Notes: generated from the sequence alone by a model not told the origin. A DNA stretch of 64,000 nt from Acidimicrobiia bacterium (GCA_038240075.1 JBBSEC010000008.1:18-64017); one strand, 5' to 3'; counted from the first letter of the stretch, positions 22,729-58,379 are shown. Made by a program: numbers and translations.

Positions 22729-22824
22729 CGCTCGCCTGCTCAGTCCTTTACACGGTCGCATGCTCGCTCGACTGGGCGTGCGCTCCGGCCGAGAACTCAG
22801 CTGAACGCTCGCCTGCTCAGTCCT
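22727..22824. repeat. 21-bp direct repeat (aacgctcgcctgctcagtcct) flanking a 56-bp insert; 77-bp period
   Basis: Exact copies at 22727-22747 and 22804-22824 between two convergent stop codons. Confidence 0.85.
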
Positions 22825-23068
22825 CGCCGGTCCGGCGCCTGCGCACGCGGTCCATGTAGAAGAGGGAGGCCGCGAACAAACCGCACATGATCGCGAACGC
22901 CACGAACGCCGCCGCGCCCTGGTCGGATGCGTCGATGGGCTGCGGTGCGACGGCACCCGCGGGCACCGCCGAGGCGAGCAGCGCGAGCAGCGACGCCATC
23001 GCGAGGAGCGGGTATCGGAGCGTGCGGAGCTTGATCGACGGTCGGGTCATCAACGGTTCGTTCCTCAT
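22817..23068 (-). CDS. Small membrane protein, last gene of the Rieske/cytb operon
   Basis: Signal-like helix plus C-terminal TM followed by RVRRRR; ATGA overlap with the upstream gene. Confidence 0.6.
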   Translation of the reverse strand: MRNEPLMTRPSIKLRTLRYPLLAMASLLALLASAVPAGAVAPQPIDASDQGAAAFVAFAIMCGLFAASLFYMDRVRRRRTGED

Positions 23069-23877
23069 GTCGCCGGCACGGGGCTCTTCGCCAACCGCTG
23101 CTTCTCGCGCTCGCGCTCACGCTCGTCGAGCTCGTACCAGTGCAGGCCGAGCATGCTGATGACGAAGAGGATGATCGAGCCGAACAGGTAGCAGACCGGT
23201 GGCAGGCGGGTGGAGCCGAAGTCGTACTCGAGCACGGCAACCTTGCGCGGGATGTCGGGGTCGCACTTCGGTAGCGGAGGCTTCTGACCGAACGGAACGG
23301 TCTGCACGAGCGCAACGCAGTACTGCACCGCCGCGTACTCGGGCTTGTGCCAGAAGTAGCGGTTCGGCTCACCGCCGACCTGGTACGTGCGCAGGTTCTG
23401 TGTCGGGTCGTCGGTGATGTACTGCAACCCGCTGTCGAACTGCGCGAACGGTTGCACCTTCGGCTTGGCGCCCGGCAGCGTGACCGCCCGCACGAACGCG
23501 CTGTCGAGGAAGGATCGGATGGTCGTGGCGGTCTGCGGAATCAGCAGCGATCCTTGTTGCGCGATATTACGGATCGCGGGGATCTTCGCGTCGGTGAACG
23601 AGGTGTCGACCTCGACCGCCTTCCACGCCGCAGCCCGGCCCTTGGGGCTCTCGAGCGGTGTGCTCGTCGTGAGCCACAGGGTGCTGAGCAGCACCATGAA
23701 GCCCGTCAGTGCCGCGGCCGCGACCAGGAACCCAAGCCGCGCCCCGAGGTTGGTCGAGAGCAGCAGGTAAGCCGATCCGCAGAACAGGAACACGCCCGCG
23801 ACGGGAGCGAGGATGCCGATGATCGTCGGATCCCACAACGTGTTCGAGGCGGCGAGGACGAGGGCGAGGTGCATCAC
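23065..23877 (-). CDS. Membrane protein of unknown function in the Rieske/cytb operon
   Basis: Two N-terminal TMs, a soluble domain with Cys residues, a C-terminal TM; GGAG SD; tight spacing. Confidence 0.75.
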   Translation of the reverse strand: MMHLALVLAASNTLWDPTIIGILAPVAGVFLFCGSAYLLLSTNLGARLGFLVAAAALTGFMVLLSTLWLTTSTPLESPKGRAAAWKAVEVDTSFTDAKIPAIRNIAQQGSLLIPQTATTIRSFLDSAFVRAVTLPGAKPKVQPFAQFDSGLQYITDDPTQNLRTYQVGGEPNRYFWHKPEYAAVQYCVALVQTVPFGQKPPLPKCDPDIPRKVAVLEYDFGSTRLPPVCYLFGSIILFVISMLGLHWYELDEREREREKQRLAKSPVPAT

Positions 23878-23883
23878 AGGCTC

Positions 23884-25119
23884 CTAGAACTTCGCGCCGG
23901 GATAGTCGACCGCTTCGAGCTTGTCAGTGGTCTTGTCGAGCCCTTCACGTTCGTACGTGACGATCTCGGTGATCTGCTCCTTCGTCAACAGCACACCGAA
24001 TCCTGGCATCCGGCCGGTACCGACTCCGTTGTTGCCGTACGGGGCTTCGAAGTCGGAGCCGAGTGACACGAACGCGATCTGCTGGGCGAGGCCGGCTCCG
24101 TTCGCGTTGTCGGAGAAGCGCGCGAGCTCCTGACTCAGGTCGGGGCCGAACGCGCCGCCGCCCGGCTGTTCGATCACGTTCTCGGGTTTCATGCCCGTCG
24201 ACGGATCGAACACCGACCAACCCATGGTGTGACACCGGGCGCAGTTCACCTCGAACAGGAGTTGTCCTTGGGACACGTTTTTTCTTCGGGCCGACCAGTC
24301 TTCGGCCCAGCTCAGCGCGCTCTGGGCATCGGTGACGGCAGTGTGTGCGGTCGTGACGTCGACCGCGGCGGCCTTGGGGTTGTCCTCGACCTTGATGAGA
24401 TTCTTCTGTGCGGCGGTGAGCGCTTCCTGCGCCGCCTTGAGCTGCTGGGACGGTTCGCCGGCGTACGCCGCGAGCGCATCGTTCGACTGCTTGCGTGCCT
24501 GTTCCGGAGTCAGCTGCCGTGACTTGATGTACGCGACGAGGTCGTTGATGCTCTGCACGTTCTTCGGGCCGCCTCCTGCGACACCCCACGGCTGCATCGG
24601 GGTCCCGGGCCGCCCGTACGTGATGATCTGGTTGACCTCTTGCGGCGAGAAGCGCAGCAGCACCGTGTTGAGTGCCGGTGCTCTCCACGGCACGAGGTTG
24701 CCGCTCTTGTCCTTGAAGATGTGTGCGACGCTGGTCGAGCCGCCACCGAGATCGGTGCCGTGGCAGTTGGCACACTGCAGCGACTTCGCCTGGTCGTACG
24801 CGGTCATCTGGTTGTTCGCGAACAGCGTCGCGCCGCGCTCGACGGCACCGCTGCTGAAGTAGTGCGCCGACTCGTGCTGGCGGTTGGGCTCGCGCAGCCA
24901 GTAGATCGGGAGCGCGACCGCGACGAGCGCGGCGAAGAACAGCGTCCAGCCGAGCACGCGCTCGAGGTGCGGGCCTTCGAGGGTCTCGTCGTCGTGGAAC
25001 ACCGCGAGGTTTTGCGGCGTGTGGGTTTCGCGGGTGCGCTTGACCGACACGATCGCGAAGATCGCGAGTGCCAGCAGCGCCGCGAGATTGATCACGACGA
25101 GAACATTGCGAACGCTCAT
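23884..25119 (-). CDS. Membrane-anchored diheme cytochrome c
   Basis: CANCH and CARCH heme motifs, candidate distal Met in PGTPMQPW and GRMPGF; two N-terminal TMs. Confidence 0.9.
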   Translation of the reverse strand: MSVRNVLVVINLAALLALAIFAIVSVKRTRETHTPQNLAVFHDDETLEGPHLERVLGWTLFFAALVAVALPIYWLREPNRQHESAHYFSSGAVERGATLFANNQMTAYDQAKSLQCANCHGTDLGGGSTSVAHIFKDKSGNLVPWRAPALNTVLLRFSPQEVNQIITYGRPGTPMQPWGVAGGGPKNVQSINDLVAYIKSRQLTPEQARKQSNDALAAYAGEPSQQLKAAQEALTAAQKNLIKVEDNPKAAAVDVTTAHTAVTDAQSALSWAEDWSARRKNVSQGQLLFEVNCARCHTMGWSVFDPSTGMKPENVIEQPGGGAFGPDLSQELARFSDNANGAGLAQQIAFVSLGSDFEAPYGNNGVGTGRMPGFGVLLTKEQITEIVTYEREGLDKTTDKLEAVDYPGAKF

Positions 25120-25181: not shown

Positions 25182-26030
25182 TCAGCCAACGCAGTGCGGG
25201 CCTTCTGCCACTTGTCCGGTCGTGTTGGTGCCGATGGGCGGGCCCACGGAGAGCAGCCCGGTGTTGATGCTGACAGCACCGCCGGAGATGAGCGCCTGGA
25301 AACGGTCGAGACCGCGTGGTGCCGGCCCGTCGCGCTTCTCGCCCACCCGGTTGTACTTCGAGCCGTGGCAGGGGCATTCGAACCACTGCGCCGACTGGCA
25401 CCACGGGACTCGGCAGCCGAGGTGCACACACTTCTGGTACAGGGCGACGATGCCCTGCTCCATGCCGGCGTAGATGTAGTCGTCGTAGATCTTCTTCGCG
25501 TTGGGCAGCGCGTTCGCGGGATACGGCTGGATGTAGGTCCGCGCCTCGGGAACGTAGAACGGCTGCAGGTTGGTCGCCATGAACGAGGTGATGTCGGACA
25601 GCTTCCCGGCCGCGATCGTGCCGCCGAAACCGCCGCTGCTCGACGGCCAGAGGAACGCAAGCAGGCTCGCCCCGAAGGTGCCGAGCGCGGCGAGCACGGT
25701 GACGAGGATCCCGCGGTTGAGGAACTGCCGGCGGGTGACACCGAGCTCTTCCGGGTCGACCGGTTCCCAGACGACCGGGGTGGAGCCCCGGCGCTTCGCG
25801 AGCCCACCAGCGGCCTGCGCGCGCGCGTCGTCGGCGCGCCCGCGCGCCTCGGCACTGAGCTCGAGCTCGGTACCCGTGGCGGCGTCGTTGCCCTTGGGGT
25901 CGGTGCTCGCGTCGCGGCTCAACGTCTCGCGGCTGAGGTTCCCGGTTGCGGAGCGCTGCCGGTTCGCGAGCAGGAAGAGGCTGGCGAGTGCGATGAGGAT
26001 GACGATGACGATCGGGATGACGACGATCAC
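25182..26030 (-). CDS. Rieske [2Fe-2S] subunit of a Rieske/cytochrome b complex
   Basis: CVHLGC and CPCHGSKY boxes, GPAPRGL, internal twin-arginine VTRRQFL plus TM. Confidence 0.93.
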   Translation of the reverse strand: MIVVIPIVIVILIALASLFLLANRQRSATGNLSRETLSRDASTDPKGNDAATGTELELSAEARGRADDARAQAAGGLAKRRGSTPVVWEPVDPEELGVTRRQFLNRGILVTVLAALGTFGASLLAFLWPSSSGGFGGTIAAGKLSDITSFMATNLQPFYVPEARTYIQPYPANALPNAKKIYDDYIYAGMEQGIVALYQKCVHLGCRVPWCQSAQWFECPCHGSKYNRVGEKRDGPAPRGLDRFQALISGGAVSINTGLLSVGPPIGTNTTGQVAEGPHCVG

Positions 26031-26039: not shown

Positions 26040-26942
26040 TTAGAGCTCGAAGAAGACGTGGTCGTTCCACGGGAAGGTGAAGTTGAAGCCCTGCCCACGG
26101 AAGAACGAGCCGATGATGACGAGGATCGACCAGAACATGAGGAACACCGTGAAGATGCAGATCGCGAACTTTCGGTCGCTCGGCTTGTGCGACGGGTTCT
26201 TGTCTGCGTACGGGGCGATCATGAGCAGGCCGAGTGCGATGCCGGGGATCGTGACGCCCGCGACCATCGGCGTGAACATGGTGAGGAGCTCCTGGAGCCC
26301 GAGGAAGTACCACGGTGCCTTCGACGGGTTCGGCGTCTGGTTCACATCGGCGAGGCCGAGCAACGGCGCCTTCACGAGCGCGGAGAAGATCGTGAGGAAC
26401 GCGGTGACCGACAGGATCGACGCGAACTCGATGACGAGCAGGTGCGGCCAGACGTGCACCTTGTCCTGCGCGTCGGCACGCGTCTGCTGGATCGATCCCG
26501 ACTTGACGACCGTGAGGAGCCGCTGGGTGTGACCGCCGGGCCCGGTGCCGCTCGGCGCGGGTGCGGTCGCGGCAGCCGCGCGCGGCAGCGTCGCGGTCGC
26601 GGTGCCGCCTCCGCCTGCAGGGGCTGCACCGCCGCCACCACCGGCGAGCGCGGCCTTGCGCTTGCGCGAGCGCTCGAGCAGCGCGGCGGGGACACCACCG
26701 ACGCTTTCGGTGATGACTTCGCCCGCGTCGGCACTGGCGGCGACGGGCGCGGCCTCTTCCGCCGGCACGGTCTCGCCGCCGGCGTCGGCGACGGGCGCGG
26801 CCTCTTCCGCCGGCACGGTCTCGCCGCCGGCGTCGGCGACTTCGGCCGCGGGCGCGTCGTCCTCTTCGCCGTCGACGGGGAGGCCGAGCGCCTTGCGGCG
26901 TTCGCGGCTGCGCTTGAGGAGATGTTCGGGTACTTCGGCCAT
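26040..26942 (-). CDS. Cytochrome b6f subunit IV (PetD)-like protein with long acidic/Ala-rich N-terminal extension
   Basis: VWPHLL, APL...A...TPNPSKAPWYFLGLQELL, 3 TMs, PYADKNP. Confidence 0.88.
   Translation of the reverse strand: MAEVPEHLLKRSRERRKALGLPVDGEEDDAPAAEVADAGGETVPAEEAAPVADAGGETVPAEEAAPVAASADAGEVITESVGGVPAALLERSRKRKAALAGGGGGAAPAGGGGTATATLPRAAAATAPAPSGTGPGGHTQRLLTVVKSGSIQQTRADAQDKVHVWPHLLVIEFASILSVTAFLTIFSALVKAPLLGLADVNQTPNPSKAPWYFLGLQELLTMFTPMVAGVTIPGIALGLLMIAPYADKNPSHKPSDRKFAICIFTVFLMFWSILVIIGSFFRGQGFNFTFPWNDHVFFEL
26738..26840. repeat. In-frame 48-bp tandem repeat (ADAGGETVPAEEAAPV x2)
   Basis: Identical units at 26738-26785 and 26786-26833 plus a 7-bp tail. Confidence 0.9.
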
Positions 26943-26958: not shown

Positions 26959-27762
26959 CTACAACGGTCCGGAGATGCCGCCGTCCTTGCGGACGCGCCA
27001 GAAATGGACGGCCATGAAGATCACGATCACAAAAGGCAGCATCAGTACATGAAGTACGTACCATCGCAGCAATGTGTCGTTGCCGATCTCCTTGGAACCC
27101 AGCAGCACGAAGCGAACCTGGCTGCCGAAGACCGGGGTGTAGCCCATCATGTTGGTGCCGACGGTGACGGCCCACAGCGCGAGCTGGTCCCACGGGAGCA
27201 GGTAGCCCGTGAAGGAGAGCAGCAGCGTGAGCGTGAGCAGGATGACGCCGATCACCCAGTTGAACTCTCGGGGCGCCTTGTACGCGCCGTGGTAGAAGAC
27301 GCGGCTCATGTGCAGGAACACCGTGAGCACCATGAGGTGCGCGGCCCAGCGATGCATATTTCGCACGAGTGAGCCGAACGTGACCGCGGTCTCGAGGTTC
27401 TGCACCGTGCTCCACGCGTCGGCCGCGGTCGGGCGGTAGAAGAACATCAAGAAGATGCCGGTGACGGTGAGCAGGATGAAGAGGAAGAACGAGAGGCCGC
27501 CGAGGCACAGCGTGTAGGAGACCTTCACCGCGTGCCGCTTCACCTTCACGGGGTGAAGGTGAAACAGCACGTTGTTCATGATCACGTACGAGCGGTTCCT
27601 GGGGCTGTCGGTGTAGCCCTTGCGGTAGATCGATCCCGGCCGGAAGATCGAGTTCCACGCCTGGGAGCCCTGCAGCTTGTCGCCGAGCTCCGAAGCGCGC
27701 GCGCTCACCTTGACGCCGAGCCCACCCGATCCGTTGCCGTTGCTGCCGTTCCCGTTGGCCAC
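26959..27762 (-). CDS. Cytochrome b6 (PetB)-like N-terminal cytochrome b
   Basis: TLCLGGLSF, RNMHRWAAH, FLHMSRV, PREFNW, TGYLLPWDQ, YVLHV..LP, VHFWRVRKDGGISGPL; GTG at 27762 after GGAGA. Confidence 0.93.
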   Translation of the reverse strand: MANGNGSNGNGSGGLGVKVSARASELGDKLQGSQAWNSIFRPGSIYRKGYTDSPRNRSYVIMNNVLFHLHPVKVKRHAVKVSYTLCLGGLSFFLFILLTVTGIFLMFFYRPTAADAWSTVQNLETAVTFGSLVRNMHRWAAHLMVLTVFLHMSRVFYHGAYKAPREFNWVIGVILLTLTLLLSFTGYLLPWDQLALWAVTVGTNMMGYTPVFGSQVRFVLLGSKEIGNDTLLRWYVLHVLMLPFVIVIFMAVHFWRVRKDGGISGPL

Positions 27763-27770: not shown

Positions 27771-28184
27771 CTAGAAGCGCACGCCGTAGGCGTAGCCGTG
27801 CCGGTTGGTGCGGACATTGGGATCGCCTTCGGCCCAGTCGTTGGTGACCTTGCCGAGGATGATGACGCCGGTCGGGCAGCGGTCGACGCAGAGCGCGCAG
27901 CGCGTGCACACGTCTTCGTCGACGACGAAGAACACGTGGTCCTTCGGGTCGTCGCCCGGGCGGTCCGCGTTGACGGAGTCGTCGATCGCGTCGACCGACA
28001 ACATGTGGATGCACTTCCACGGACAGATGTCGACGCAGCCTTCGCAGAGGATGCACTCGGCCTGGTCGATGTGCAGGAACTGCTTCGGCTTCACCGCGGA
28101 CGTGAGCCACGACGGATCGACCTCTTGCAGCACGTAGTCGGCTGCGAACTCCGGCATCGGCGGATTGGCGTCGTTACGCGGCAT
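27771..28184 (-). CDS. 2x[4Fe-4S] ferredoxin
   Basis: CILCEGCVDICP and CTRCALCVDRCP; acidic linker. Confidence 0.92.
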   Translation of the reverse strand: MPRNDANPPMPEFAADYVLQEVDPSWLTSAVKPKQFLHIDQAECILCEGCVDICPWKCIHMLSVDAIDDSVNADRPGDDPKDHVFFVVDEDVCTRCALCVDRCPTGVIILGKVTNDWAEGDPNVRTNRHGYAYGVRF

Positions 28185-28190: not shown

Positions 28191-28709
28191 TCACACCTTC
28201 GCCGTCATGGGTCGCCCGTACGCCGACGTTCCCGCCGGGTCCGACTCGCTTGACGCCGCGCCGTCGTCGGACAGGGGTGCCGCGACCGGACGTCGCTGCC
28301 AGATCTGGAAGAGCCTGATGTTCAGGGTGAGCATGACGACGTAGATGACGGCCGCGATCGCGTCGTTGGCTGTCTGCTTGTTGACGTCGAAATGAACGAA
28401 GCGGTTCCTCTGGAACACGTACTTCGCGGTGCCCCACCGCAGGTACGAGTTCGCGTAGACGATCCACTCGTGCGGGATCGTGCCGTACGCAACGATCATC
28501 AGCGAGAACGCGGCCAGTGCACCGAGCATCGCCTGCGCCCACGTCGGGGGCTCGGCCGGCTTCGGGCGCCGCGCGAGAAATCCGATCACGGCCAGCCCGA
28601 TGAGGAGGATCACGACGGCCCAGATCAGACGGCCGGCGGCATGCGTCCACGACATGTTGAAGCCGAGCACGCTCTTGGGAAGAGGGTTGGGAATGTGCAC
28701 CGCGAGCAT
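28191..28709 (-). CDS. 3-TM membrane protein, first gene of the Rieske/cytb operon
   Basis: TWAQAMLGA..YGTIPHEW..W, C-terminal TSAYGRP; GGGGAG SD. Confidence 0.75.
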   Translation of the reverse strand: MLAVHIPNPLPKSVLGFNMSWTHAAGRLIWAVVILLIGLAVIGFLARRPKPAEPPTWAQAMLGALAAFSLMIVAYGTIPHEWIVYANSYLRWGTAKYVFQRNRFVHFDVNKQTANDAIAAVIYVVMLTLNIRLFQIWQRRPVAAPLSDDGAASSESDPAGTSAYGRPMTAKV

Positions 28710-28834
28710 TGGACGCTCCCCGATCTCCTCTGTCCGTGGAGATGATTGCTACCACGCTAGATGAGGCGTGGGCACATTGTTGAACAGGGCCCGCGACGGG
28801 CGCGTTGCGCGTTCCGGATCATGGGCGTGGGAGC

Positions 28835-30130
28835 ATGAGCACAACCGCCCTGTCGTCCGCGAACGGACGCGTGATGCACGAACGCACAAGCGATCGCTAC
28901 GACGTTCTCGTGATCGGCGCGGGACCGTCGGGCGCGGCTGCGGCCTACTGGCTCGCGGAGCGGGGACGGCGAGTGCTTCTCGTCGAGAAGAAGCGGTTCC
29001 CGCGCGAGAAGACGTGCGGCGACGGCCTCACGCCGAGAGCCGTGCGCCAACTGCACGACATGGGTCTCGCCGAACCGCTGTCGGAGTTCCATCGCTTCGA
29101 CGGGCTCCGGTCGATTGCTCACGGCGTCACCCTCGAGCTCGCGTGGCCCGACCATCCCGACTTCCCCGGCTACGGCTATGTCGTCCGGCGCAGCGAGCTC
29201 GACCAGATGGTGGCCGAGCGCGCGGTGAAGGCGGGGGCGACCCTCTGGCCCGCGAGCGAAGCGATCGGGCCGGTGCTCGAGCGCGGGATCCTCGACGGCG
29301 CGGTGGTCCGGCGGGCCGACACCGGCACGACCGAGGTCGTCCGGGCCCGGTACGTGATCGTCGCCGACGGGGCCAACTCGCGCTTCGGCCGGGCGCTCGG
29401 CACGGTCCGGGACCGCAGCTTCCCGCTCGGCATGGCGATTCGCGGCTATTTCACCAGTCCGTACCACGATGAGCCCTGGATCGAGAGCCACCTCGACCTC
29501 CGCGACCGTGACGGGAACCATTTGCCAGGGTATGGGTGGATTTTTCCGGTCGGCGACGGCACGGTCAATGTCGGCGTCGGGCTCCTCTCCACCTTCCGCG
29601 GCTGGAAGGACGTCAACACCTCCCACCTGATGGAGGCCTTCTGCGAGACCGCGCCGGCCCGGTGGGGCATCGGGCCCGACACGGCCACCTGCGCACCGAC
29701 CGGCGGGAAGCTCCCCACCGGCACCTCGATCCACCCCACCGTCGGACCGAACTTCGTCGTGGCCGGCGACGCCGCAGGCACCGTCAACCCGTTCAACGGC
29801 GAGGGCATCTCGGTCGCGTACGAGACGGGACGGTTGGCCGCCGATGCCGTCGACCTCGCGCTGGCGACCGACGACGGCCTCGCGCTGCAGACCTACACCG
29901 AACGCCTCGACGAGGTGTACGGCCTCTACTTCAAGGTCGCGCGCACCTTCGTGACCGCCATCGGCAACCCCGCGGTCATGCGCGAGCTCACGCGGGTCGG
30001 GATGCAGAGCCGACCGCTGATGGAGTGGGTGCTGCGCATCATGGCGAACCTGCTGCGGCCCGACGAGATCGGGCCCGCCGAGGCGGCGTACAAGATCGTC
30101 GAACGCCTGGTCGCGCTCAGCCCCGTCTGA
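28835..30130 (+). CDS. Geranylgeranyl reductase-family FAD oxidoreductase (MenJ-like menaquinone side-chain reductase)
   Basis: DVLVIGAGPSG, FPREKTCGDGLTPRAV, ADGANS, GYGWIFP, GDAAGTVNPFNGEGI; upstream of nuoA as in streptomycetes; start uncertain. Confidence 0.85.
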   Translation: MSTTALSSANGRVMHERTSDRYDVLVIGAGPSGAAAAYWLAERGRRVLLVEKKRFPREKTCGDGLTPRAVRQLHDMGLAEPLSEFHRFDGLRSIAHGVTLELAWPDHPDFPGYGYVVRRSELDQMVAERAVKAGATLWPASEAIGPVLERGILDGAVVRRADTGTTEVVRARYVIVADGANSRFGRALGTVRDRSFPLGMAIRGYFTSPYHDEPWIESHLDLRDRDGNHLPGYGWIFPVGDGTVNVGVGLLSTFRGWKDVNTSHLMEAFCETAPARWGIGPDTATCAPTGGKLPTGTSIHPTVGPNFVVAGDAAGTVNPFNGEGISVAYETGRLAADAVDLALATDDGLALQTYTERLDEVYGLYFKVARTFVTAIGNPAVMRELTRVGMQSRPLMEWVLRIMANLLRPDEIGPAEAAYKIVERLVALSPV

Positions 30131-30197: not shown

Positions 30198-30674
30198 GTG
30201 AACGATTACTTGCCGATCGTCTTGATGATCGGCCTCGTCGTCGCCTTTGCCGGCCTGTCGTTCGTCGCGTCCGGGCTGCTCGGCACGCAGGAGCCCAATT
30301 CGGCCAAGCAGGCCCCGTACGAGTGCGGGATCGTGCCCGAGGTCGAGCCCGCAGAGCGCTTTCCGGTCAAGTTCTACCTGGTTGCCATGGCGTTCATCGT
30401 GCTCGACGTCGAGATCGTGTTCCTCTATCCCTTCGTCACGGTGTTCCGACAGCTCGGGCTGTTCGGCCTCGTCGCGATGGGTGTGTTCGTCTTCGGGCTG
30501 CTGGTGCCGTTCGCGTACCTGCTGTCGGTCGGCGCGCTCGCATGGGGACCGGTCCAGCGACGCGTCTCGGCTGGTATCGGTCCGCTGCGCCGCTCGGCGA
30601 TCGCGGTCTTCGATCCGACGCCGGCGAACGCGGCCACGGCGCCGATCGCGAGCCCGGAGCACGAAGCCGCCTGA
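30198..30674 (+). CDS. nuoA: NADH-quinone oxidoreductase subunit A (cluster 1)
   Basis: [25 protein letters not shown]; leaderless TACGCT-N7-GTG. Confidence 0.95.
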
Positions 30675-30688
30675 GGGCGGGCGCCACC

Positions 30689-31216: not shown

Positions 31217-31261
31217 GCCTGCCGACCGTCCGACAATCGCTCGAGAACCCCTTCAAGAACC

Positions 31262-31846: not shown

Positions 31847-31947
31847 GCGAGCAGACGGAAATACGCGTCGTGAAAGCGACATCCGGCCCAGTCGCGAGCG
31901 GGGCCCGAGCGGCCCGGCGCCGCAGGCGCCAGGAGCGGGAACGATGA
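31843..31947 (+). repeat. MIRU-like insertion encoding a 34-aa ORF that bridges nuoC and nuoD
   Basis: ATGAGCGA duplicated at 31843 and 31944; ORF MSEQTEIRVVKATSGPVASGARAARRRRRQERER has ATGA overlaps at both ends. Confidence 0.75.
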
Positions 31948-33335: not shown

Positions 33336-33337
33336 CG

Positions 33338-48381: not shown

Positions 48382-48398
48382 ACGGGGGAGCGGCATAG

Positions 48399-49595: not shown

Positions 49596-49605
49596 CCGAT
49601 AGCCG

Positions 49606-50640: not shown

Positions 50641-51122
50641 TGGCGCGCAGACAGATCAAGGGGATGCTCGGCGGTCTCGGCATCACGTTCAAGACGATGC
50701 TGAAGCCCGCGGTCACGGTGCAGTACCCGCACGAGCGTGAAGACCCGACTCCGCGCGCGCGTGGCGTCATCGCGCTCAAGGAGGAGAACTGCACGGTCTG
50801 CATGCTGTGCTCGCGCTCCTGCCCCGACTGGTGCATCTACATCGAGGGGCACAAGGAGAAGCGTCCGCCGCGTCGCGAGGGTGGGCGCGACCGCACGGTG
50901 AGCATCCTCGACCGCTTCGACATCGACTACGCGCTCTGCATGTACTGCGGTATCTGCGTCGAGGTGTGCCCGTTCGACGCGCTCTTCTGGAGCCCCGAGT
51001 TCGAGTACTCCGAGCCGAACATCGCCTCACTGCTGCACGACAAGGTCCGCCTCGGAGAGTGGATGGAGTCGGTTCCGGAGCCCGAGCCGCTCGAGCTCGG
51101 CGCCGAAGTGAAGAAAAAGTGA
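50640..51122 (+). CDS. nuoI: Complex I subunit I (cluster 2)
   Basis: [12 protein letters not shown] and [12 protein letters not shown]; basic insert [14 protein letters not shown]. Confidence 0.94.
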
Positions 51123-51610
51123 TCGCGGAGAACGTTGCGTTCGGGATCATCGCGGCCGCGATGGCGATCGGCGCGATCGGTGTCGTGCGCACCCAGAACG
51201 TCGTGCACGCGGCGCTGTTCCTCGTCGTAGTGCTCGCGGGCGCGGCTGCGCAGTACATCCTGCTCGGCGCCGAGTTCGTCGCGTGGGTGCAGGTGCTCGT
51301 CTACATCGGCGCGGTGATCGTCCTCTTCCTCTTCGGAATCATGCTGACCCGCGCGCCCATGCATCCCACCGAGCCCATGGACAACAACCTGCGGATCTGG
51401 GCACTGCTGCCGTCCGGCCTGCTTGCGATCGTGCTCGGCGGGCTGCTCGTCGACGCGTTCGGCCGGGACAAGATCCACCTCACCGCGCCGACTGCCAACG
51501 TCGAGATCACGAACTCGATCTTCCGCGTATACCTTGTGCCGTTCGAAGTGGTGGGAGTCCTGTTGCTCGCCGCGCTCATCGGCGCCGTCGTCCTGGCCCG
51601 GAAGGACTGA
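51119..51610 (+). CDS. nuoJ: Complex I subunit J (cluster 2)
   Basis: [29 protein letters not shown]. Confidence 0.93.
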
Positions 51611-51612
51611 CC

Positions 51613-51912
51613 GTGCTGCTCAACCAGTTCCTGCTCCTCGGCGCCTTCCTCTTCGCGGCCGGCGTCTACGGCGTGGTGACCCGCCGCAACAGCGTGCTCG
51701 TGCTCATGAGCGTCGAGCTGATGCTGGCCGCGGTCAACGTGAACCTCGTCGCGTTCTCGGCCTATCTCCACACGGTCGCGGGCCAGACGTTCGCACTGTT
51801 CGTGCTCACGATCGCGGCCGCGGAGGTCGGGGTCGGCTTGGCGATGATCCTGCTCATCTACCGCAACCTCTCGAGCTCCGATCTCGATGACGTCGACGTG
51901 CTGAAGGGCTGA
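51613..51912 (+). CDS. nuoK: Complex I subunit K (cluster 2)
   Basis: RRN, VELML, IAAAEVGVGLA, LKG. Confidence 0.94.
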   Translation: MLLNQFLLLGAFLFAAGVYGVVTRRNSVLVLMSVELMLAAVNVNLVAFSAYLHTVAGQTFALFVLTIAAAEVGVGLAMILLIYRNLSSSDLDDVDVLKG

Positions 51913-51915
51913 GCC

Positions 51916-54084
51916 GTGTTCTTCCTCGACCACGCTTGGCTGGTCCCCCTCATCCCCGCGGTGTCCTTCGTGGTCATCCTCCTGTTCGGGAAGCGCTTCC
52001 CGAAGGGCGGATCCGAAGTCGGCATCGTTGCGCTCTTCGCGTCGTGGGTGCTCTCGTGCGGCGCGTTCTACCAGTGGGTGCAGCGGGTCGACGATGCCGG
52101 CAACGCCAAGGGCGCCGCGGGCACGGTGAAGGCGTTCGCGTCGAGCCTGAAGCTGGCGGCGACGAGCAGCGGCGAGCACGCCGCGCCCGTCGCCCCGATC
52201 GTGCACTCGATCACCTGGTTCCAGAGCGGCGGGATCAAGTTCGGTGCCGGCATCCAGATCGACGGTCTCGCGGTGATGATGATGTTCGTCGTCACCACGA
52301 TCTCGCTGCTCGTGCACGTGTACTCCACCGAGTACATGCGAAACGACCGCCGCTACACCTACTTCTTCGCCGCGCTGAGCCTCTTCACCGCGTCGATGCT
52401 GCTGCTCGTCGTGGCCGACAACACGCTCCAGCTGCTGGTCGGTTGGGAGCTCGTCGGCCTCTGTTCCTTCATGCTGATCGGGCACTGGTGGGAGGAGAAG
52501 CCCAACTCGAACGCCGCGTTGAAGGCGTTCCTCACCACGCGCACCGGCGACATCGGGCTGATCATCGGTGTCGTGATGACCTTCTTCATCGTCGGTCGCG
52601 CCACGGGCACACCCTCGTTCAACATCGTGGCGCTGAACACGGCGGCGCTGTCGGGCAAGGTCAGCCACCTGATGCTGCTGGTGTGCGCGTGCGCGCTCAT
52701 GGCCGCGATCGTCGGCAAGAGCGGTCAGTTCCCGCTGCACACCTGGCTCCCCGACGCCATGGCCGGGCCGACACCCGTCTCGGCGCTGATCCACGCGGCC
52801 ACGATGGTGGTCGCGGGCGTCTACCTCGGCGCGCGCGTGTACCCCGTGTTCTTCGAGGGCTTCTCGATCGGCAACGGCGGCGTGAACCTGATGGCGATCA
52901 TCGGCGGCACGACCGTGATCATCGGCGCCGCGCTCGCGTTCGTGCAGGACGACATCAAGAAGGTTCTCGCCTATTCGACGATCAGCCAGCTCGGGTACAT
53001 GGTGATGGGGCTCGGTGTCGGCGCGTGGATCGCAGCGATCTTCCATCTCTTCACCCATGCGTTCTTCAAGGCCGACCTCTTCCTGGGGGCCGGTTCGGTG
53101 AGCCACTCGGGCTCGCACCACTCCTTCGACATGAAGGAAGACATGGGCGGCCTGCGGAAGTTCATGCCGCAGACGTTCGCGACCTTCGTGATCGGCTCGC
53201 TCGCGCTGGCCGGGATCTTCCCGCTCGCAGGGTTCTGGTCGAAGGACGAGATCCTCCTCACCGCGGGGAAGAGTGGGTACACGTTCTTCATGGTCGTGGG
53301 GCTCGCGGGCGCGTTCATGACGGCCGCGTACATGACCCGCTGCATCTACCTGACCTTCTATGGCGAGTACCGCGGTGGAGACCACGTCGGTGCGCACCCC
53401 GACGAAGCCGAGCACCTTCCGGTCGAGGACGGTCTCGAGGCGCACGCTCCCCACCGTCCCCACGAGTCCCCGCCCGTGATCACCGTGCCGCTCTGGATCC
53501 TCTCGTTCTTCGCGGTGACCGCGGGTCTGCTCAACGCCGAGCCGTTCCACATCGAGAAGTTCAAGGAGTGGTTCGAGCCGCGCGTGGCCTTCCCCGAGCT
53601 CGTGCACCCCGCGTTCAGCTGGGGCGCCGCTGGCCTCTCGGTCGCGATCGCGGTGCTCGGCATCGCGGTCGCGTACGAGTACTACTGGGACCGCCGCGGC
53701 CTGCGCGACCTCTCGTCGCGCAACGCTGCCGCGCGTGCGGGCAAGACGTTCCTGGTGAACAAGTACTACCTCGACTATCTGTACACCGATGTCGTGGTGG
53801 GCTCGATCAAGGGCCCGATCGCCAACGCGTCGTACTGGGTGAACCAGCACGTGATCGACGCCGTGCTGAACGGTGTCGGCCGCGGCTCGCTCGGGGTCGC
53901 ACGCTTCACCTACGACGTTCTCGATCAGCGCGGCGTCGACGGCATCGTCAACGGCTTGGCCGTCGGCACCGGCGACGCCGGCGGCGCGGCGCGAGCCGTA
54001 GAAACGGGTCGATTGCAGTGGTACGCCCTACTCATGTTCTCCGCGGTGACGCTATTCAGCGTCTTCCTGTGGATCGCGCACTGA
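51916..54084 (+). CDS. nuoL: Complex I subunit L (cluster 2)
   Basis: WELVG, KAFLTTRTGD, KSGQFPLHTWLPDAMAGPTPVSALIHAATMV, SKDEI. Confidence 0.95.
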   Translation: MFFLDHAWLVPLIPAVSFVVILLFGKRFPKGGSEVGIVALFASWVLSCGAFYQWVQRVDDAGNAKGAAGTVKAFASSLKLAATSSGEHAAPVAPIVHSITWFQSGGIKFGAGIQIDGLAVMMMFVVTTISLLVHVYSTEYMRNDRRYTYFFAALSLFTASMLLLVVADNTLQLLVGWELVGLCSFMLIGHWWEEKPNSNAALKAFLTTRTGDIGLIIGVVMTFFIVGRATGTPSFNIVALNTAALSGKVSHLMLLVCACALMAAIVGKSGQFPLHTWLPDAMAGPTPVSALIHAATMVVAGVYLGARVYPVFFEGFSIGNGGVNLMAIIGGTTVIIGAALAFVQDDIKKVLAYSTISQLGYMVMGLGVGAWIAAIFHLFTHAFFKADLFLGAGSVSHSGSHHSFDMKEDMGGLRKFMPQTFATFVIGSLALAGIFPLAGFWSKDEILLTAGKSGYTFFMVVGLAGAFMTAAYMTRCIYLTFYGEYRGGDHVGAHPDEAEHLPVEDGLEAHAPHRPHESPPVITVPLWILSFFAVTAGLLNAEPFHIEKFKEWFEPRVAFPELVHPAFSWGAAGLSVAIAVLGIAVAYEYYWDRRGLRDLSSRNAAARAGKTFLVNKYYLDYLYTDVVVGSIKGPIANASYWVNQHVIDAVLNGVGRGSLGVARFTYDVLDQRGVDGIVNGLAVGTGDAGGAARAVETGRLQWYALLMFSAVTLFSVFLWIAH

Positions 54085-54103
54085 CCGGAGGGGTTCTCGT
54101 CCG

Positions 54104-55669
54104 ATGAACTGGTTCGATTCGTGGGCGCTGACCCTGGTGGTCTTCGTACCCGTCGTGGGCATGGGCATCGTGCTCCTGCTGCCGCGGGAAGAAGAGCAGG
54201 CGATCAAGATGACCACCCTGCTCGCCACGCTCGTGACGTTCGGCTTCACGATCGCCGTGCTCTGCCGCTACCACTACGGCGCCAACCACCCCGGTCTGCA
54301 GTTCGACGTGAACAAGAGCTGGATCGACGTCATCAACAGCCGGTACCACATCGGTGTCAACGGCATCTCGCTGCCGATGCTCGCGCTGTCGCCCTTCATC
54401 AGCCTCTTGTGCGTCGTCTACTCGTGGAACCACTTCCCCGATCCGCACAACCCGAAGGCGTTCCTCGCGCTGCTCCTGCTCCTCGAGACGGGGATGAACG
54501 GCACGTTCGTCGCGCAGGACCTCATCTTGTTCTTCATCTTCTTCGAGTTGGTCCTGCTCCCGATGTTCTTCATGATCGGGGTCTGGGGCGGTCCCAACAA
54601 GGAGTACGCGTCGATCAAGTTCTTCCTGTTCACGATGTTCGGCTCCGCGTTGATGCTGCTGAGCTTCCTGGCGCTCTACTTCAAGGTCGACGTGACCGCG
54701 GTGACGCACGGCGCGATGCACCACACGTTCGACATCCCGACGCTGGCCAAGGCTCACGGCCAAGGACTCGTGCACGGTACGCAGTTGCTGATCTTCGGCG
54801 GCCTGTTCATCGGCTTCGCGATCAAGGTGCCGATGTTCCCGTTCCACACCTGGCTCCCGGACGCCCACACCGAAGCGCCCACCGTCGGTTCCGTGCTCCT
54901 CGCCGCCATCCTGCTGAAGCTGGGTACCTACGGCTTCATCCTGATCGCGCTGCCGATCCTGCCCGAGGCCGCCCGGAGCTGGGCACCATGGATCGGCCTG
55001 CTCGCCGTGATCGGCATCATCTACGGCGCGCTCAACTGCCTTGCGCAGAAGGACATGAAGCGCCTCATCGCGTTCTCGTCGATCGCGCACATGGGGTTCG
55101 TGATGCTCGGCATCGCGACTCTCACGTCGTTCGGCATCAACGCCGCGGTCTTCGGGATGGTCGCGCACGGTCTCATCACCGGCATGCTCTTCTTCGTCGC
55201 CGGCTCGGTGCAGCACAACTTCGGTACGCGCGAGATGAGCCGCCTCGGTGGACTGTTGCTGCAGGCCCCGAAGATGGGTTGGATCCTCGGGTTCTGCGTG
55301 ATGGCGTCGCTCGGTCTTCCCGGCCTCGCCGGGTTCTGGGGCGAGTTCCCGGCGATCCTCTCGGCGTTCCAGCCGGCGGCGCCGCTGAGTGAAGCGGTGT
55401 TCCGCACGTTCATGGTCGTCGCCGCGGTCGGCACGGTCTTCGCGGCCGGCTACCTGCTCTACATGCTGCAGCGCGTCGCGTTCGGGAACGTGCGTGACGA
55501 GTTCGCCGACGCCCACATCCACGACGTCAACCTGACCGAGTGGATCGCGTGGACCCCGATGCTCGTCATGATCCTCGTCCTCGGCATCTACCCGAACCTG
55601 CTGTTCAAGGTGACCGACGTCGCGGTGCACCCGATGACCGTCGCGATCGGGCACGCGATCAACCGATGA
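54104..55669 (+). CDS. nuoM: Complex I subunit M (cluster 2)
   Basis: KVPMFPFHTWLPDAHTEAPT, KRLIAFSS, GLPGLAGFWGE. Confidence 0.95.
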   Translation: MNWFDSWALTLVVFVPVVGMGIVLLLPREEEQAIKMTTLLATLVTFGFTIAVLCRYHYGANHPGLQFDVNKSWIDVINSRYHIGVNGISLPMLALSPFISLLCVVYSWNHFPDPHNPKAFLALLLLLETGMNGTFVAQDLILFFIFFELVLLPMFFMIGVWGGPNKEYASIKFFLFTMFGSALMLLSFLALYFKVDVTAVTHGAMHHTFDIPTLAKAHGQGLVHGTQLLIFGGLFIGFAIKVPMFPFHTWLPDAHTEAPTVGSVLLAAILLKLGTYGFILIALPILPEAARSWAPWIGLLAVIGIIYGALNCLAQKDMKRLIAFSSIAHMGFVMLGIATLTSFGINAAVFGMVAHGLITGMLFFVAGSVQHNFGTREMSRLGGLLLQAPKMGWILGFCVMASLGLPGLAGFWGEFPAILSAFQPAAPLSEAVFRTFMVVAAVGTVFAAGYLLYMLQRVAFGNVRDEFADAHIHDVNLTEWIAWTPMLVMILVLGIYPNLLFKVTDVAVHPMTVAIGHAINR

Positions 55670-55688
55670 CCGTCACCAGGGTGACCAC

Positions 55689-57179
55689 ATGAACCCGGCG
55701 ATCGACTGGCACGCATTCGCGCCGGACGCCATCCTCGTCGCGACCGTCGTCATCATCCTCGTCGCCGACCTGCTCCTGCCCAACCGGAACGCGTGGCAGA
55801 CATCGCGCATCGCCGCGGTCGGCGTCCTGTGCGCGTTGATCCCAGTCTTCACGCTCGCGGTCGACGGTCACAACCGTTCGATGTTCGGCGGGGCCTACGT
55901 CGTCGACAACTACGCGCTCGCGTTGAAGGGCTTCTTCCTCGTCGTCGCGTACATCACGATCCTGCTCTCGGTCGACTACATCTCCGAGGGCGACTACTAC
56001 CAGGGCGAGTTCTATTTCCTGCTCGTCACGTCGGTGCTCGGGATGAGCATCATGGCTTCGGCGCGCGACCTCGTCACCCTGTTCGTCGCCCTCGAGACGA
56101 TCTCGATCCCGACCTACATCCTCGCCGGGTACCGCAAGCACGACCGCCGGTCGAACGAAGCCGGCATCAAGTACTACCTGATCGGTGTGCTCTCCTCCGC
56201 GGTGATGCTCTACGGCATGTCGCTCATCTTCGGGCTCACCGGATCGACGACGTTGAGTGGCATCTCGCAATGGATCGGGACGCACGGCAGCAACGCCCCC
56301 GCGCTCCTCACGGTCGCGATCTTCCTGTCGCTCGTGGGGTTCGCGTTCAAGGTCAGCGCGGTGCCGTTCCACTTCTGGGCGCCCGACACCTACGACGGCG
56401 CGCCGCTGCCGGTCACCGCGTTCCTCTCCGTCGCGTCGAAGGCCGGCGGCTTCGTCGCCATGCTCAATATCGTCTTCTTCGGGTTCGGCAACGACGGGAA
56501 GGCGTGGTGGTGGGTCGTCGCGTTGTTGGCCGCGTTCTCGATGACGCTGGGCAACCTCGCGGCGCTGCGCCAGACCAACCTCGTGCGCATGCTCGCCTAT
56601 TCGTCGATCGCACAGGGTGGCTTCCTGCTCGTCCCGTTCGCGGCTTACGGCATCGCGCGTGACGCGTCCGTGCGCACCTCCGCGTTCCAGGCGACGATCG
56701 TCTACCTGCTCATCTACGGCGCGATGAACCTCGGCGCGTTCGCCGTTGTCATCGCGGTCGTCCGTCGGACCCGCACCTCCGACATCGAGTCGTACGCAGG
56801 CCTGTTCGCGACCTCGCCCGGTCTTGCGTTGACGATGACGATCTTCCTCGCGTCGCTCGCCGGCATCCCGCCGCTGGCGGGGTGGTACGCCAAGTTCGTG
56901 ATGTTCCGCGCCATCATCGAAGCCGGCGCCCACTCGAACTGGGCGGTCGGCCTCGCGATCGTGGCCGCGGTCAACTCGGTGATCGCGTTCTTCTACTACT
57001 CCGGCGTGATCCGGCAGATGTGGTTCCGCGAACCGGTCGGCGACGATCAGCGCCGCGTCGCCGTGCCGCCCGCACTCGGTGCGGCCATCGCGCTCACGAC
57101 GGTCACCGTGGTCGCGGTCGGCGTCTACCCGGAGTTGTTCGCCCGCGTCGGCGATCTCGCAACCCGCTTCGTCTCCTGA
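55689..57179 (+). CDS. nuoN: Complex I subunit N (cluster 2)
   Basis: EAGIKYY, FKVSAVPFHFWAPDTYDGAP, RMLAYSSI, GIPPLAG. Confidence 0.95.
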   Translation: MNPAIDWHAFAPDAILVATVVIILVADLLLPNRNAWQTSRIAAVGVLCALIPVFTLAVDGHNRSMFGGAYVVDNYALALKGFFLVVAYITILLSVDYISEGDYYQGEFYFLLVTSVLGMSIMASARDLVTLFVALETISIPTYILAGYRKHDRRSNEAGIKYYLIGVLSSAVMLYGMSLIFGLTGSTTLSGISQWIGTHGSNAPALLTVAIFLSLVGFAFKVSAVPFHFWAPDTYDGAPLPVTAFLSVASKAGGFVAMLNIVFFGFGNDGKAWWWVVALLAAFSMTLGNLAALRQTNLVRMLAYSSIAQGGFLLVPFAAYGIARDASVRTSAFQATIVYLLIYGAMNLGAFAVVIAVVRRTRTSDIESYAGLFATSPGLALTMTIFLASLAGIPPLAGWYAKFVMFRAIIEAGAHSNWAVGLAIVAAVNSVIAFFYYSGVIRQMWFREPVGDDQRRVAVPPALGAAIALTTVTVVAVGVYPELFARVGDLATRFVS

Positions 57180-58379
57180 GTGGTCGAGAGCACCGGTCCT
57201 GTTCACCATCTCGCCGGTCTGATCCGGCGCGAAGGCCCGGTCCCGTTCGACACCTTCGTCGAAGTCGCGCTCTACGGCTCCGGCGGCTTCTTCGCGTCGG
57301 GCCACGGTGCCGGGCGCGGCACGGACGCGATTGGCGCCGACCGCATCGGCGGCGACTTCATCACGAGCCCTGAGATCGGTCCGGTCTTCGGTGCGCTCGT
57401 CGCGGCCGCGCTCGACCGGTGGTGGGGCGACCTGGAGCGGCCCGACCCGTACCTCGTGGTCGAAGCGGGTGCCGGGCGCGGCCGCCTCGCCTCCGACGTG
57501 ATGCGGGCTCGGCCGCAGTGCCTCGCCGCGTTGCGGTACGTGCTCGTCGAACGGTCGGCGGTGCTGCGCGACGCGCAGCGCGCGCTGCTGCGGCTCGAGC
57601 CTCCCGACGAGGCGTTCGGACCGTACGTCGCGTCGGCCGGTTCCGACGCTCCGGAGCCGGTTCCGGAGAGCGGTCCGGTCGTGACGAGCCTCGACGAGCT
57701 CCCCGGAGTCGAGCTTGATGGCGTCGTCATCGCCAACGAGCTCCTCGACAATCTTCCGTTCGGGATCGCGCGGTATTCGGGTTCGGGCTGGGAGGAAGTG
57801 CGCGTCGGGCTCGACGGCACGGGTGCGTTCGTCGAGGTGGTGGTGCCCGCGTTGCCGGCCGACGCGCTCGCGCTCGCGCACGTCACCGCAGGCCTCGTGC
57901 CCGCCGTGGGCGATCGGCTTCCGATCCCGCGCGGCCTCGACGACTGGTTGCGACGGACCGCAGCGATTCTCCGGCGCGGCTACGTCGTGCTGATCGACAC
58001 CATGGATACGGCCGCGGGGACCCTGGCGCGCGACACGGGCGCCTGGCTGCGGACGTACCGCGGTCACGCGTCGGCCGGGCCCGCGCTCGCCGATCCCGGT
58101 TCGCGCGACCTCGTGGCCGACGTCGTGACCGAGCAGCTGCGGCACGCGGCGGCCGACGCCGGATTCGCAGTGCTGACCGACACGACCCAGGCGGCCTGGC
58201 TCGACGACCTCGGGATCGCGGGCATGGTCGACCGCGGTCGCACCCTGTGGGAAGAGCGCGCCGCCGTCGGCGACCTCGCCGCGCTCGAGGCGCGCAGCGT
58301 CGCGAGCCAAGCCGCCGCGCTCACCGACCCGGCCGGCCTCGGTGCCCACCGCGTCGTCGTCCTCGGCCGCCACCTCTGA
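57180..58379 (+). CDS. MidA/NDUFAF7-family SAM-dependent methyltransferase
   Basis: [53 protein letters not shown]; starts on the base after the nuoN stop. Confidence 0.88.

Follow-up and report, generated by a model that had tools for sequence, protein, structure and literature searches.

The stretch of DNA analysed here, called the window below, covers 64,000 nt of the draft genome of an Acidimicrobiia bacterium (G000:C8:18-64017; ~68% G+C). The genome measures 4.43 Mb in 171 contigs and is 94% complete. Three respiratory modules lie in the window: an operon for a b6c-type Rieske/cytochrome b complex that includes a ferredoxin gene, a full 14-subunit NADH:quinone oxidoreductase operon (nuo1) and an 11-gene complex I operon (nuo2). 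A preliminary description of this DNA had read the cluster as a respiratory super-locus in which the ferredoxin couples nuo2 to the Rieske/cytochrome b complex. The observation itself is confirmed, while the interpretation as a whole is partly supported. In the reading preferred here, the region would be a vertically inherited core respiratory neighbourhood of Acidimicrobiia, a set of separate complexes and not one machine, with the ferredoxin as a partner of the b6c complex and nuo2 as a separate enzyme of the 11-subunit type. The probability of this whole reading is put at about 55%. From the observed gene identities, cofactor motifs, operon structure, conservation and distributions, we infer where the ferredoxin binds, in which direction electrons flow and what donates electrons to nuo2.

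Split b6-like cytochromes in deep actinobacteria, the APWY clade, the FeS/NAD(P) subunits of anammox bacteria and headless complex I are already in print. For the conserved ferredoxin gene of the actinobacterial b6c operon, no description was found in the literature searched, supplementary figures and tables and ten Brink et al. 2013 aside.

The b6c operon and its ferredoxin

Genes were delimited by third-position G+C and then tested against Pfam and NCBIfam; "cut-off" refers to the NCBIfam cut-offs or the Pfam gathering scores. Every gene listed in the preliminary description was recovered in its place in this way. The b6c operon (28709->22817, minus strand) consists of eight genes with junctions of 0-60 nt, each with its own Shine-Dalgarno sequence. 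In operon order, these are:

28191-28709, minus strand: 172-aa basic membrane protein, first operon gene (no Pfam/NCBIfam family)
27771-28184, minus strand: 137-aa 2x[4Fe-4S] ferredoxin (Fer4 families)
26959-27762, minus strand: cytochrome b6-like four-helix subunit (PF00033)
26040-26942, minus strand: subunit-IV-like protein (PF00032)
25182-26030, minus strand: PetC-like Rieske [2Fe-2S] protein (PF00355)
23884-25119, minus strand: membrane-anchored dihaem cytochrome c, 411 aa, class-I-like (Cytochrome_CBB3, Cytochrom_C)
23065-23877, minus strand: 270-aa membrane protein (no Pfam/NCBIfam family; homologues in 8/20 loci)
22817-23068, minus strand: 83-aa membrane protein (no Pfam/NCBIfam family)

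Cytochrome b is split, with PF00033 and PF00032 on separate genes. In the PDB, the b6-like subunit matches cyanobacterial and chloroplast cytochrome b6 (E 6e-54) far better than actinobacterial QcrB (~1e-29). Its NCBIfam scores are 308.4 for cytb_ExtP (cut-off 290) and 219 for the cytochrome b6 subfamily; of the ExtP/ExtQ pair, ExtQ stays below its cut-off (49 vs 150). Across the class, including genomes of ~1 Mb, this subunit is 73-90% identical. A CxGG motif (C88-L89-G90-G91), with the cysteine predicted to attach haem cn, is invariant in 21/21 cytochrome b6 sequences. The same holds for the Qo motif APWY (A209-P210-W211-Y212, within K208-A-P-W-Y-F) in 21 subunit IV sequences. The Rieske boxes read CVHLGC...CPCHGSKY, and both the motif and the Ser and Tyr of box II are kept in 21/21 relatives. 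The nearest NCBIfam models are b6f iron-sulfur subunits, with scores under their cut-offs. According to the available part of Baymann et al. (PMC3509893), Ser and Tyr at these positions are taken to predict a potential of at least +300 mV. The c-type subunit carries CANCH at residue 116 and CARCH at residue 293, so it is a dihaem cytochrome c and not cytochrome f.

Judged by its split b6, CLGG and APWY motifs, PetC-like Rieske protein and dihaem cytochrome c, the operon is assigned to a Rieske/cytochrome b complex of b6c type that belongs to the APWY clade and has the dihaem cytochrome c where b6f has cytochrome f. The likeness to b6f that had been claimed for it is borne out by the best PDB matches, the CLGG motif and the Rieske type. 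Subunit IV also has an N-terminal extension of ~130 aa (window 26500-26942) of low complexity, rich in Ala, Pro, Glu and Gly. Here, the direct peptide repeat ADAGGETVPAEEAAPVA occurs twice; relatives have comparable extensions of variable sequence. The three membrane proteins without a family may be extra subunits or assembly factors of the complex. An Atlas search with two of them returned solely unannotated actinobacterial clusters. Homologues of the 172-aa protein lie upstream of the ferredoxin in 9/18 ferredoxin-bearing loci, and upstream of cytochrome b6 in the ferredoxin-less locus L048.

This operon likely encodes the housekeeping complex III. The genome yielded just two cytochrome b genes, neither of them of the QcrB type; a QcrB-type cytochrome b was considered as the main complex III, with none found in the 94%-complete genome. 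There is one haem-copper oxidase gene. Since menD scores above its cut-off and the MqnA family gives no hit, the organism is a menaquinone user. Together, the two cytochrome b genes, the lack of a QcrB type, the single oxidase and menD make the b6c complex the likely main menaquinol:cytochrome c reductase, and this enzyme would carry haem cn.

The second cytochrome b (contig C92, L022:1426-5587) is unsplit, has 458 aa and shows RLGF instead of the CxGG cysteine. It is preceded, with a 4-nt overlap, by a gene for a 604-aa GltD-like protein (Fer4_20, Pyr_redox_2 and a C-terminal dicluster Fer4) and followed by a 177-aa cytochrome c. No Rieske gene belongs to this locus. The C-terminal dicluster domain of the 604-aa protein is 39% identical to the ferredoxin of the window (E 6e-14).

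The ferredoxin of the window is acidic, with an isoelectric point (pI) of 4.5 and no predicted transmembrane segment. The motif CxxCxxCxxxCP occurs twice, at C44 and C93, and 8/8 cysteines are invariant across 18 sequences, in which the N- and C-terminal extensions outside the core are also conserved. Its nearest solved relatives are polyferredoxin modules (FwdF, MvhB), the ferredoxin domains of HdrA, and NdhI/NuoI. In the window, 8 nt separate the TAG stop codon of the ferredoxin from the GTG with which cytochrome b6 starts, and AGGAG is the ribosome-binding site. Across the phylum, the ferredoxin gene stands directly upstream of cytochrome b6 in 19/19 loci, at 2-147 nt between its stop and the start of the cytochrome b6 match, and it is always a separate gene (0/19 fused). 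A locus search with the ferredoxin alignment gave 592 matches, and the best 80, which were kept, hold solely close Acidimicrobiia relatives. Four genomes (G010, G020, G008, G031) have two ferredoxin copies with identical scores at distant sites, and in L077 and L078 the copies share one contig, ~0.5 Mb apart. These twin copies suggest a duplicated b6c locus.

Based on this arrangement and by analogy, the ferredoxin, translationally coupled to cytochrome b6, would be an n-side (cytoplasmic) 2x[4Fe-4S] subunit or a dedicated partner of the b6c complex. It would exchange electrons with haem bH or haem cn and thereby offer a cytoplasmic inlet or outlet for the low-potential chain. In this respect it may be the smallest form of the FeS/NAD(P)-oxidoreductase subunits that have been proposed for the Rieske/cytochrome b complexes of anammox bacteria. 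Electrons could flow inward, from ferredoxin via haem cn to menaquinone, as a non-photosynthetic counterpart of the ferredoxin:quinone reductase route proposed for b6f. They could also flow outward, with menaquinol bifurcation reducing the ferredoxin as in the anammox proposal; this is made less implausible by the pairing of a high-potential-type Rieske protein with menaquinone.

The second complex I and its electron donor

The plus-strand genes next to the b6c operon, with one minus-strand gene among them, are the following:

28805-30130, plus strand: geranylgeranyl-reductase-family FAD-dependent gene, MenJ-like (TIGR02032, 246 vs cut-off 158.8)
30198-45570, plus strand: nuoA-N (nuo1), 14-subunit NADH:quinone oxidoreductase (14/14 Pfam families matched in order, including NuoE, NuoF and NuoG)
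45733-46683, minus strand: patatin-like phospholipase gene between nuo1 and nuo2
~46792-57179, plus strand: nuo2, that is nuoA2B2C2D2H2I2J2K2L2M2N2 (nuoA2 start uncertain; Pfam, NCBIfam)
50640-51122, plus strand: NuoI2, with a basic loop between its two cluster motifs
57180-58379, plus strand: NDUFAF7/MidA-family methyltransferase (PF02636)

The nuo1 operon would be an ordinary NADH dehydrogenase. Pfam and NCBIfam find no nuoE, nuoF or nuoG among the 11 genes of nuo2, which form one operon with a gap of 10 nt between D2 and H2, so the second, headless complex I of the preliminary description is upheld. The FeS ligands of the Q module are intact: NuoB2 has the N2 ligands, with CPPRP among its motifs, and in NuoI2 the motif CxxCxxCxxxCP occurs twice. 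This gene order is kept in 25/26 related loci (19/20 around NuoD2-like hits and 6/6 further ones), the single exception being L046 with a lone NuoD2-like gene. Family f60 (7.5-9.2 Mb) was considered as a case of nuo2 without ferredoxin and not counted, the one locus inspected holding a lone NuoD2-like gene with no nuo2 neighbours (L046, L075). The patatin-like gene upstream of nuoA2 recurs in the related loci L028 and L035. Retention of nuo2 extends to genomes of ~1 Mb and to genomes in which no ferredoxin, or no part of the b6c complex, was found.

Equivalog models of cyanobacterial NDH-1 remain below their cut-offs on nuo2 (NdhH, 344.7 vs 583; ndhI, 64.9 vs 302), and no NdhS, NdhV or NdhO genes were recognised in the operon, although no search was aimed at them. 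The Fpo equivalogs also stay below their cut-offs (FpoD, 346 vs 600).

The methyltransferase start codon follows the nuoN2 stop codon immediately. The protein scores 122.6 with PF02636 (cut-off 23.3) and matches the NDUFAF7 homologue 5ztz in the PDB (E 7.8e-11), its other PDB matches being COG1565/DUF185 proteins. Within the class, such a gene lies within ~700 nt of nuoN2 in 10/15 loci; among nuo2 loci of other classes this is 0/4. According to the available part of PMC3829151, the mitochondrial homologue acts in the assembly of complex I, where it methylates an arginine in the counterpart of NuoD. The motif GPQHP..HG.LR is present in NuoD1 and NuoD2 alike. Going by these genes, nuo2 would be an enzyme of 11 subunits that resembles complex I, with its own NDUFAF7-like maturation factor.

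NuoI2 had been described as carrying a basic insert at which an acidic donor might dock. When 20 NuoI2 sequences were aligned with NuoI1, the loop between the cluster motifs was indeed basic (HKE..PP...GG+P+) where that of NuoI1 is acidic, but it is only ~5 residues longer and not a large insert. The basic loop is kept in 26/26 NuoI2 sequences compared, and the six from ferredoxin-less genomes are unchanged. Therefore, it is not a dedicated docking site for the operon ferredoxin. By sequence, it is a hallmark of the nuo2 clade as a whole, and some acidic donor may dock there.

For 11-subunit enzymes in general, the available parts of PMC11238625 and PMC4453560 treat the donor as unknown, with ferredoxin as a leading candidate. 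In the genome studied here, two 2-oxoacid:ferredoxin oxidoreductase loci were found, on contigs C54 and C60, in a search of the kind suggested along with the preliminary description. A low-potential cytoplasmic donor would feed nuo2, most likely the general ferredoxin pool reduced by these two oxidoreductases and not specifically the operon ferredoxin.

Another view is that nuo2 lacks a separate donor and uses the NuoEFG of nuo1, which would make it a second isozyme of NADH dehydrogenase, with the ferredoxin unrelated to it. NuoD1-type genes accompany NuoD2 in nearly all genomes, and NuoF was found in 5/5 genomes checked, including three of ~1 Mb with nuo1 just upstream of nuo2, as such sharing would need. 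However, NuoD2 is only ~40% identical to NuoD1, and the NuoI loop is charge-reversed between the two operons. Streamlined genomes of ~1 Mb also keep both complete sets, which argues against redundancy. On these grounds, sharing of NuoEFG is regarded as rather unlikely. In the genome studied here, NuoD is present in two copies, both inside the window, and two further NuoF-like genes lie on contigs C36 and C123. That on C36 (L023:3645-9094) codes for a flavoprotein and is flanked by genes for two transmembrane proteins of the ferric reductase type, one of which has an NAD-binding domain, and by those for an FMN_bind protein and ApbE, which makes an unusual membrane redox cluster.

An F420H2 dehydrogenase module had been offered as a further alternative, with nuo2 using an FrhB/FpoF-like protein. 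An FrhB_FdhB-like gene on contig C26 (L025:7752-8921) encodes 390 aa, and F420 is probably made, given a cofD score that exceeds the cut-off. This gene is not linked to nuo2, however, and its distribution does not follow nuo2. It occurs in 78/151 class genomes and in none of the nuo2-bearing families f22 (0/15), f25 (0/35), f29 (0/7), f30 (0/5) and f31 (0/5), while five nuo2-less genomes have it (G026, G067, G146, G159, G166). Therefore, it is not a nuo2 module. With the Fpo equivalogs also below their cut-offs, the F420H2 alternative is highly improbable. As a separate observation, at least 11 relatives, including G160, G129, G156, G035, G026, G143, G063, G028, G093 and G106, have one in-frame TGA in their FrhB/FdhB-like gene; that of G000 has none. 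This may be a selenocysteine/cysteine pair.

Upstream of the respiratory genes lie rex and a set of tetrapyrrole genes:

15402-16151: rex (Pfam)
following rex: hemA, hemC, cobA/hemD, hemB and hemL, tetrapyrrole genes (Pfam)

These had been described as a Rex-controlled operon. A Rex-operator-like inverted repeat is indeed present at 15371-15388, 14 nt upstream of rex, with 2 mismatches to the consensus. In the window, the Rex-box pattern has 3 matches vs 0.29 expected by chance, the other two lying inside nuoC1 and nuoD1. No Rex site was found at the b6c, menJ-like and nuo promoters with up to 3 mismatches allowed. The reductase described as MenJ-like does belong to the geranylgeranyl reductase family, but with the MenJ equivalog model it scores 319.7 vs a cut-off of 700.

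Ferredoxin and nuo2 across related genomes

Among 41 relatives within the order, 39 have the ferredoxin, at 71-98% identity or as contig-end fragments, and 39 have NuoD2 (78-96%). Neither gene was found in the remaining two, G006, which is 78% complete and has no NuoD hit, and G026, which is 96% complete. The two genes lie mostly 10-25 kb apart on one contig, and as a rule all three modules are found together on a contig within ~25 kb. Thus, the arrangement is not due to chance. A ferredoxin loop between the complexes stays speculative.

The class sample consists of the same 151 genomes for the ferredoxin, NuoD and cytochrome b counts. A ferredoxin was scored at E <= 1e-15 and a nuo2-type NuoD at >= 53% identity, or as pieces; the NuoD2 genomes include contig-end pieces (G102, G144) and one split gene (G173). 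The ferredoxin is present in 137/151 genomes and a nuo2-type NuoD in 145/151. The joint distribution is as follows:

ferredoxin and nuo2 present: 137 genomes
ferredoxin present, nuo2 absent: 0 genomes
ferredoxin absent, nuo2 present: 8 genomes
both absent: 6 genomes (G026, G067, G146, G159, G083, G166)

Two of the eight nuo2-bearing genomes without ferredoxin are only 87% (G107) and 79% (G172) complete, while the other six (G088, G169, G145, G154, G108, G151) have a complete nuo2 operon. Of these six, G088 keeps a CLGG-bearing cytochrome b6, and the other five have no b6-type cytochrome b with this query. No b6-type cytochrome b was found in five of the six genomes without both genes either; G026 is the one that keeps it. 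That genome retains the membrane protein, cytochrome b6 with CLGG intact, subunit IV, the Rieske protein, the cytochrome c and the 270-aa protein, with 130 bp at the ferredoxin site. It also retains nuo1 next door, between the two sites, and has no second NuoD or NuoL.

The phylum sample comprises 201 genomes; its tallies include the unpublished G174, G190, G218, G250, G256, G285, G311 and G335 (families f42, f49, f75 and f84). Homologues of the ferredoxin with 35-50% identity are present in 87 genomes, mainly of families f42, f47, f48, f49, f51 and f55. These families also have a second NuoD2-like gene with 45-53% identity. In G246 (98% complete), the ferredoxin-b6 operon is present, but NuoD and NuoL each occur only once. 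Within the class sample, several families have hundreds of kb between the ferredoxin-b6 operon and nuo2; the distance is 740 kb in one genome of 1.0 Mb, and in G099 it is 3.6 Mb. Therefore, their retention is not only a matter of linkage.

Phylogenetic profiling had been proposed as a check on the coupling of the two systems. It finds that the ferredoxin and nuo2 are not independently distributed, yet each is able to exist without the other. Independent distribution had been named along with the preliminary description as an outcome that would refute the coupling, and the genomes do not show it. Shared descent confounds the co-occurrence, and so does physical linkage in many genomes. No P value is attached to it, and the relatives are not independent samples.

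These distributions bear on the idea that the operon ferredoxin shuttles between the b6c complex and nuo2, docking on the basic NuoI2 loop, as a non-phototrophic analogue of the cyclic flow through ferredoxin, NDH-1 and b6f. Such a loop would account for a nuo2-type NuoD in 137/137 ferredoxin genomes, for the ferredoxin in 0/6 nuo2-less genomes and for G026, which lost the ferredoxin and nuo2 and kept b6c and nuo1. It would also account for the NuoD2-like genes in the phylum families with ferredoxin homologues and for the retention of both systems, ~740 kb apart, in genomes of ~1 Mb; the acidic ferredoxin (pI 4.5), the basic NuoI2 loop and the acidic NuoI1 loop would suit it as well. However, a full nuo2 whose basic loop is unchanged occurs without the ferredoxin in six genomes, five of them also without a b6-type cytochrome b, and G246 combines the ferredoxin-b6 operon with just one copy each of NuoD and NuoL. 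Thus, coupling is not obligatory. The energetics would also be unfavourable. By rough arithmetic with midpoint potentials, a steady forward loop, in which low-potential electrons of menaquinol are raised against the membrane potential to a ferredoxin at ~-400 mV and nuo2 then pumps at its full stoichiometry of 2 H+ per electron, would conserve more energy than electron transfer from menaquinol to cytochrome c releases. With shared descent confounding the co-occurrence and none of the NdhS-, NdhV- and NdhO-like genes recognised in the operon, this shuttle is considered quite improbable.

Several findings weigh against the reading preferred here, in which the ferredoxin belongs to b6c and nuo2 stands apart. 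Both the loss pattern of G026 and the absence of the ferredoxin from all six nuo2-less class genomes are what a ferredoxin-nuo2 link would predict. Since G026 and G088 keep a CLGG-bearing cytochrome b6 without the ferredoxin, the complex is able to exist without it. The AlphaFold2 model of the ferredoxin (18-row alignment) has a mean predicted local distance difference test score of 59.6, i.e. low confidence. Fusions of the ferredoxin to cytochrome b are weak evidence in favour of this reading: among the protein hits longer than the ferredoxin query, ~20/76, from metagenomes, carry both Fer4 and cytochrome b domains, but the fusion open reading frames are all singleton clusters and possibly assembly errors. 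Six were inspected: ferredoxin and cytochrome b6 are cleanly fused in frame in P0152 and P0139, while P0133 and P0143 run through intergenic sequence and P0146 and P0163 hold frameshift garbage. The N-terminus of cytochrome b6 lies on the n-side in b6f structures, which fits the fusion topology. A multimer prediction of cytochrome b6 (36-269), subunit IV (136-300) and the ferredoxin with custom alignments scored 0.01 and gave no verdict either way.

Some of the same findings would suit a ferredoxin that is not an electron-transfer subunit at all. It could be a maturation or reductant-supply factor (e.g. for haem cn attachment), or a general ferredoxin that is merely co-transcribed. Its constant encoding as a separate gene, the persistence of the complex without it in G026 and G088, the low-confidence predicted fold and the missing membrane anchor all agree with such a role. 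Against it, the haem-cn cysteine is kept where the ferredoxin is missing, and the extensions beyond the ferredoxin core are conserved. The ferredoxin is also homologous to the FeS domain next to cytochrome b in the C92 locus, where an electron relay is the natural reading. This role is therefore held to be very doubtful.

A bolder version of the preferred reading can also be formulated. Here, the ferredoxin would be a true n-side subunit that links haem bH/cn to the ferredoxin pool in an aerobic, non-phototrophic bacterium with menaquinone. The complex would act either as a ferredoxin:menaquinone reductase, which would be the long-sought ferredoxin:quinone reductase (FQR) activity of b6f minus the photosystem, or as a Rieske-driven bifurcating menaquinol:(cytochrome c + ferredoxin) oxidoreductase, for which the high-potential-type Rieske protein would be the enabling feature. 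Then, nuo2 would be the proton-pumping re-oxidiser, and the circuit would have been inherited together across deep Actinomycetota classes. As a whole, this circuit is a tentative proposal and distinctly unlikely.

Significance and comparison with known systems

Two questions meet in this region, the role of haem cn, or of a ferredoxin feeding or draining the n-side of b6-type complexes, and the donor to the widespread 11-subunit headless complex I. On the first, this lineage has a dedicated ferredoxin gene in a fixed place immediately upstream of a haem-cn cytochrome b6; the ferredoxin was found in 137/151 class genomes, with homologues in other deep actinobacterial families. Since the lineage has cultured non-phototrophic members (the chromosome of Salinilacustrithrix flava is among the related loci), the question of haem cn and ferredoxin would be testable free of photosynthesis. 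As predicted from their genes, Acidimicrobiia, including those with genomes of ~1 Mb, would combine a b6c-type complex III with two forms of complex I, which bears on how energy metabolism is interpreted in a group abundant in soil, freshwater and the sea.

The window operon resembles the b6f complexes of cyanobacteria and chloroplasts and the b6c complexes of Firmicutes and heliobacteria in its split b6 and subunit IV, its CxGG motif and its PetC-like Rieske protein with CPCHGSxY. It differs in having a dihaem cytochrome c instead of cytochrome f and APWY instead of PEWY at Qo, in a host that uses menaquinone, and in holding a ferredoxin gene and three genes for membrane proteins without a family.

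With the APWY clade, which includes ExtP/ExtQ of Geobacter, the operon shares the APWY Qo motif, the split cytochrome b, CxGG and an ExtP score above the cut-off. In the available part of Kao and Hunte (2014, PMC4122944), an Ilumatobacter (Acidimicrobidae) strain is listed among the actinobacteria with a split cytochrome b, and at the time of that article none of the APWY enzymes had been characterised. Differences from the clade are LCLGG here where WCMGG is typical in the same part of that article, and the low ExtQ score (49 vs 150). The same part holds no mention of a ferredoxin gene beside a cytochrome b of the APWY clade. The gene context also differs from that of ExtP/ExtQ, being one of aerobic respiration and not a cluster for selenite/tellurite reduction.

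Like cyanobacteria and chloroplasts, in which NDH-1 takes ferredoxin as donor, this organism has a headless complex I, a b6-type complex and a dedicated ferredoxin gene. Unlike there, the NdhH and NdhI equivalogs are far under their cut-offs, and there is no photosystem to re-reduce the ferredoxin. According to the available parts of Moparthi and Hagerhall (2011, PMC3144371) and Willemin et al. (2024, PMC11238625), 11-subunit complex-I-like enzymes consist of nuoABCDHIJKLMN without nuoEFG and have a cofactor-complete Q module, as nuo2 does. Distinctive of nuo2 are its place beside a full nuoA-N in nearly every class genome, the conserved basic NuoI loop and the NDUFAF7-like gene that follows.

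The architecture of an NAD(P)-oxidoreductase with cytochrome b was described by Dibrova et al. (PMC5600118) and for anammox bacteria (PMC12954380), as far as the available parts of these articles go. Compared with the anammox complexes, the window operon has a 137-aa dicluster ferredoxin only, with no flavin/NAD(P) domain, belongs to an aerobic heterotroph lineage, and has a dihaem cytochrome c as acceptor instead of multihaem or HAO-type proteins. In common with the Rieske/cytochrome b complexes of anammox bacteria (Kuenenia), as the same parts of these two articles present them, it has a cytoplasmic FeS protein encoded beside cytochrome b and a high-potential-type Rieske protein combined with a low-potential quinone. 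The C92 locus of the same genome has exactly the anammox-type architecture of a GltD-like protein plus Fer4.

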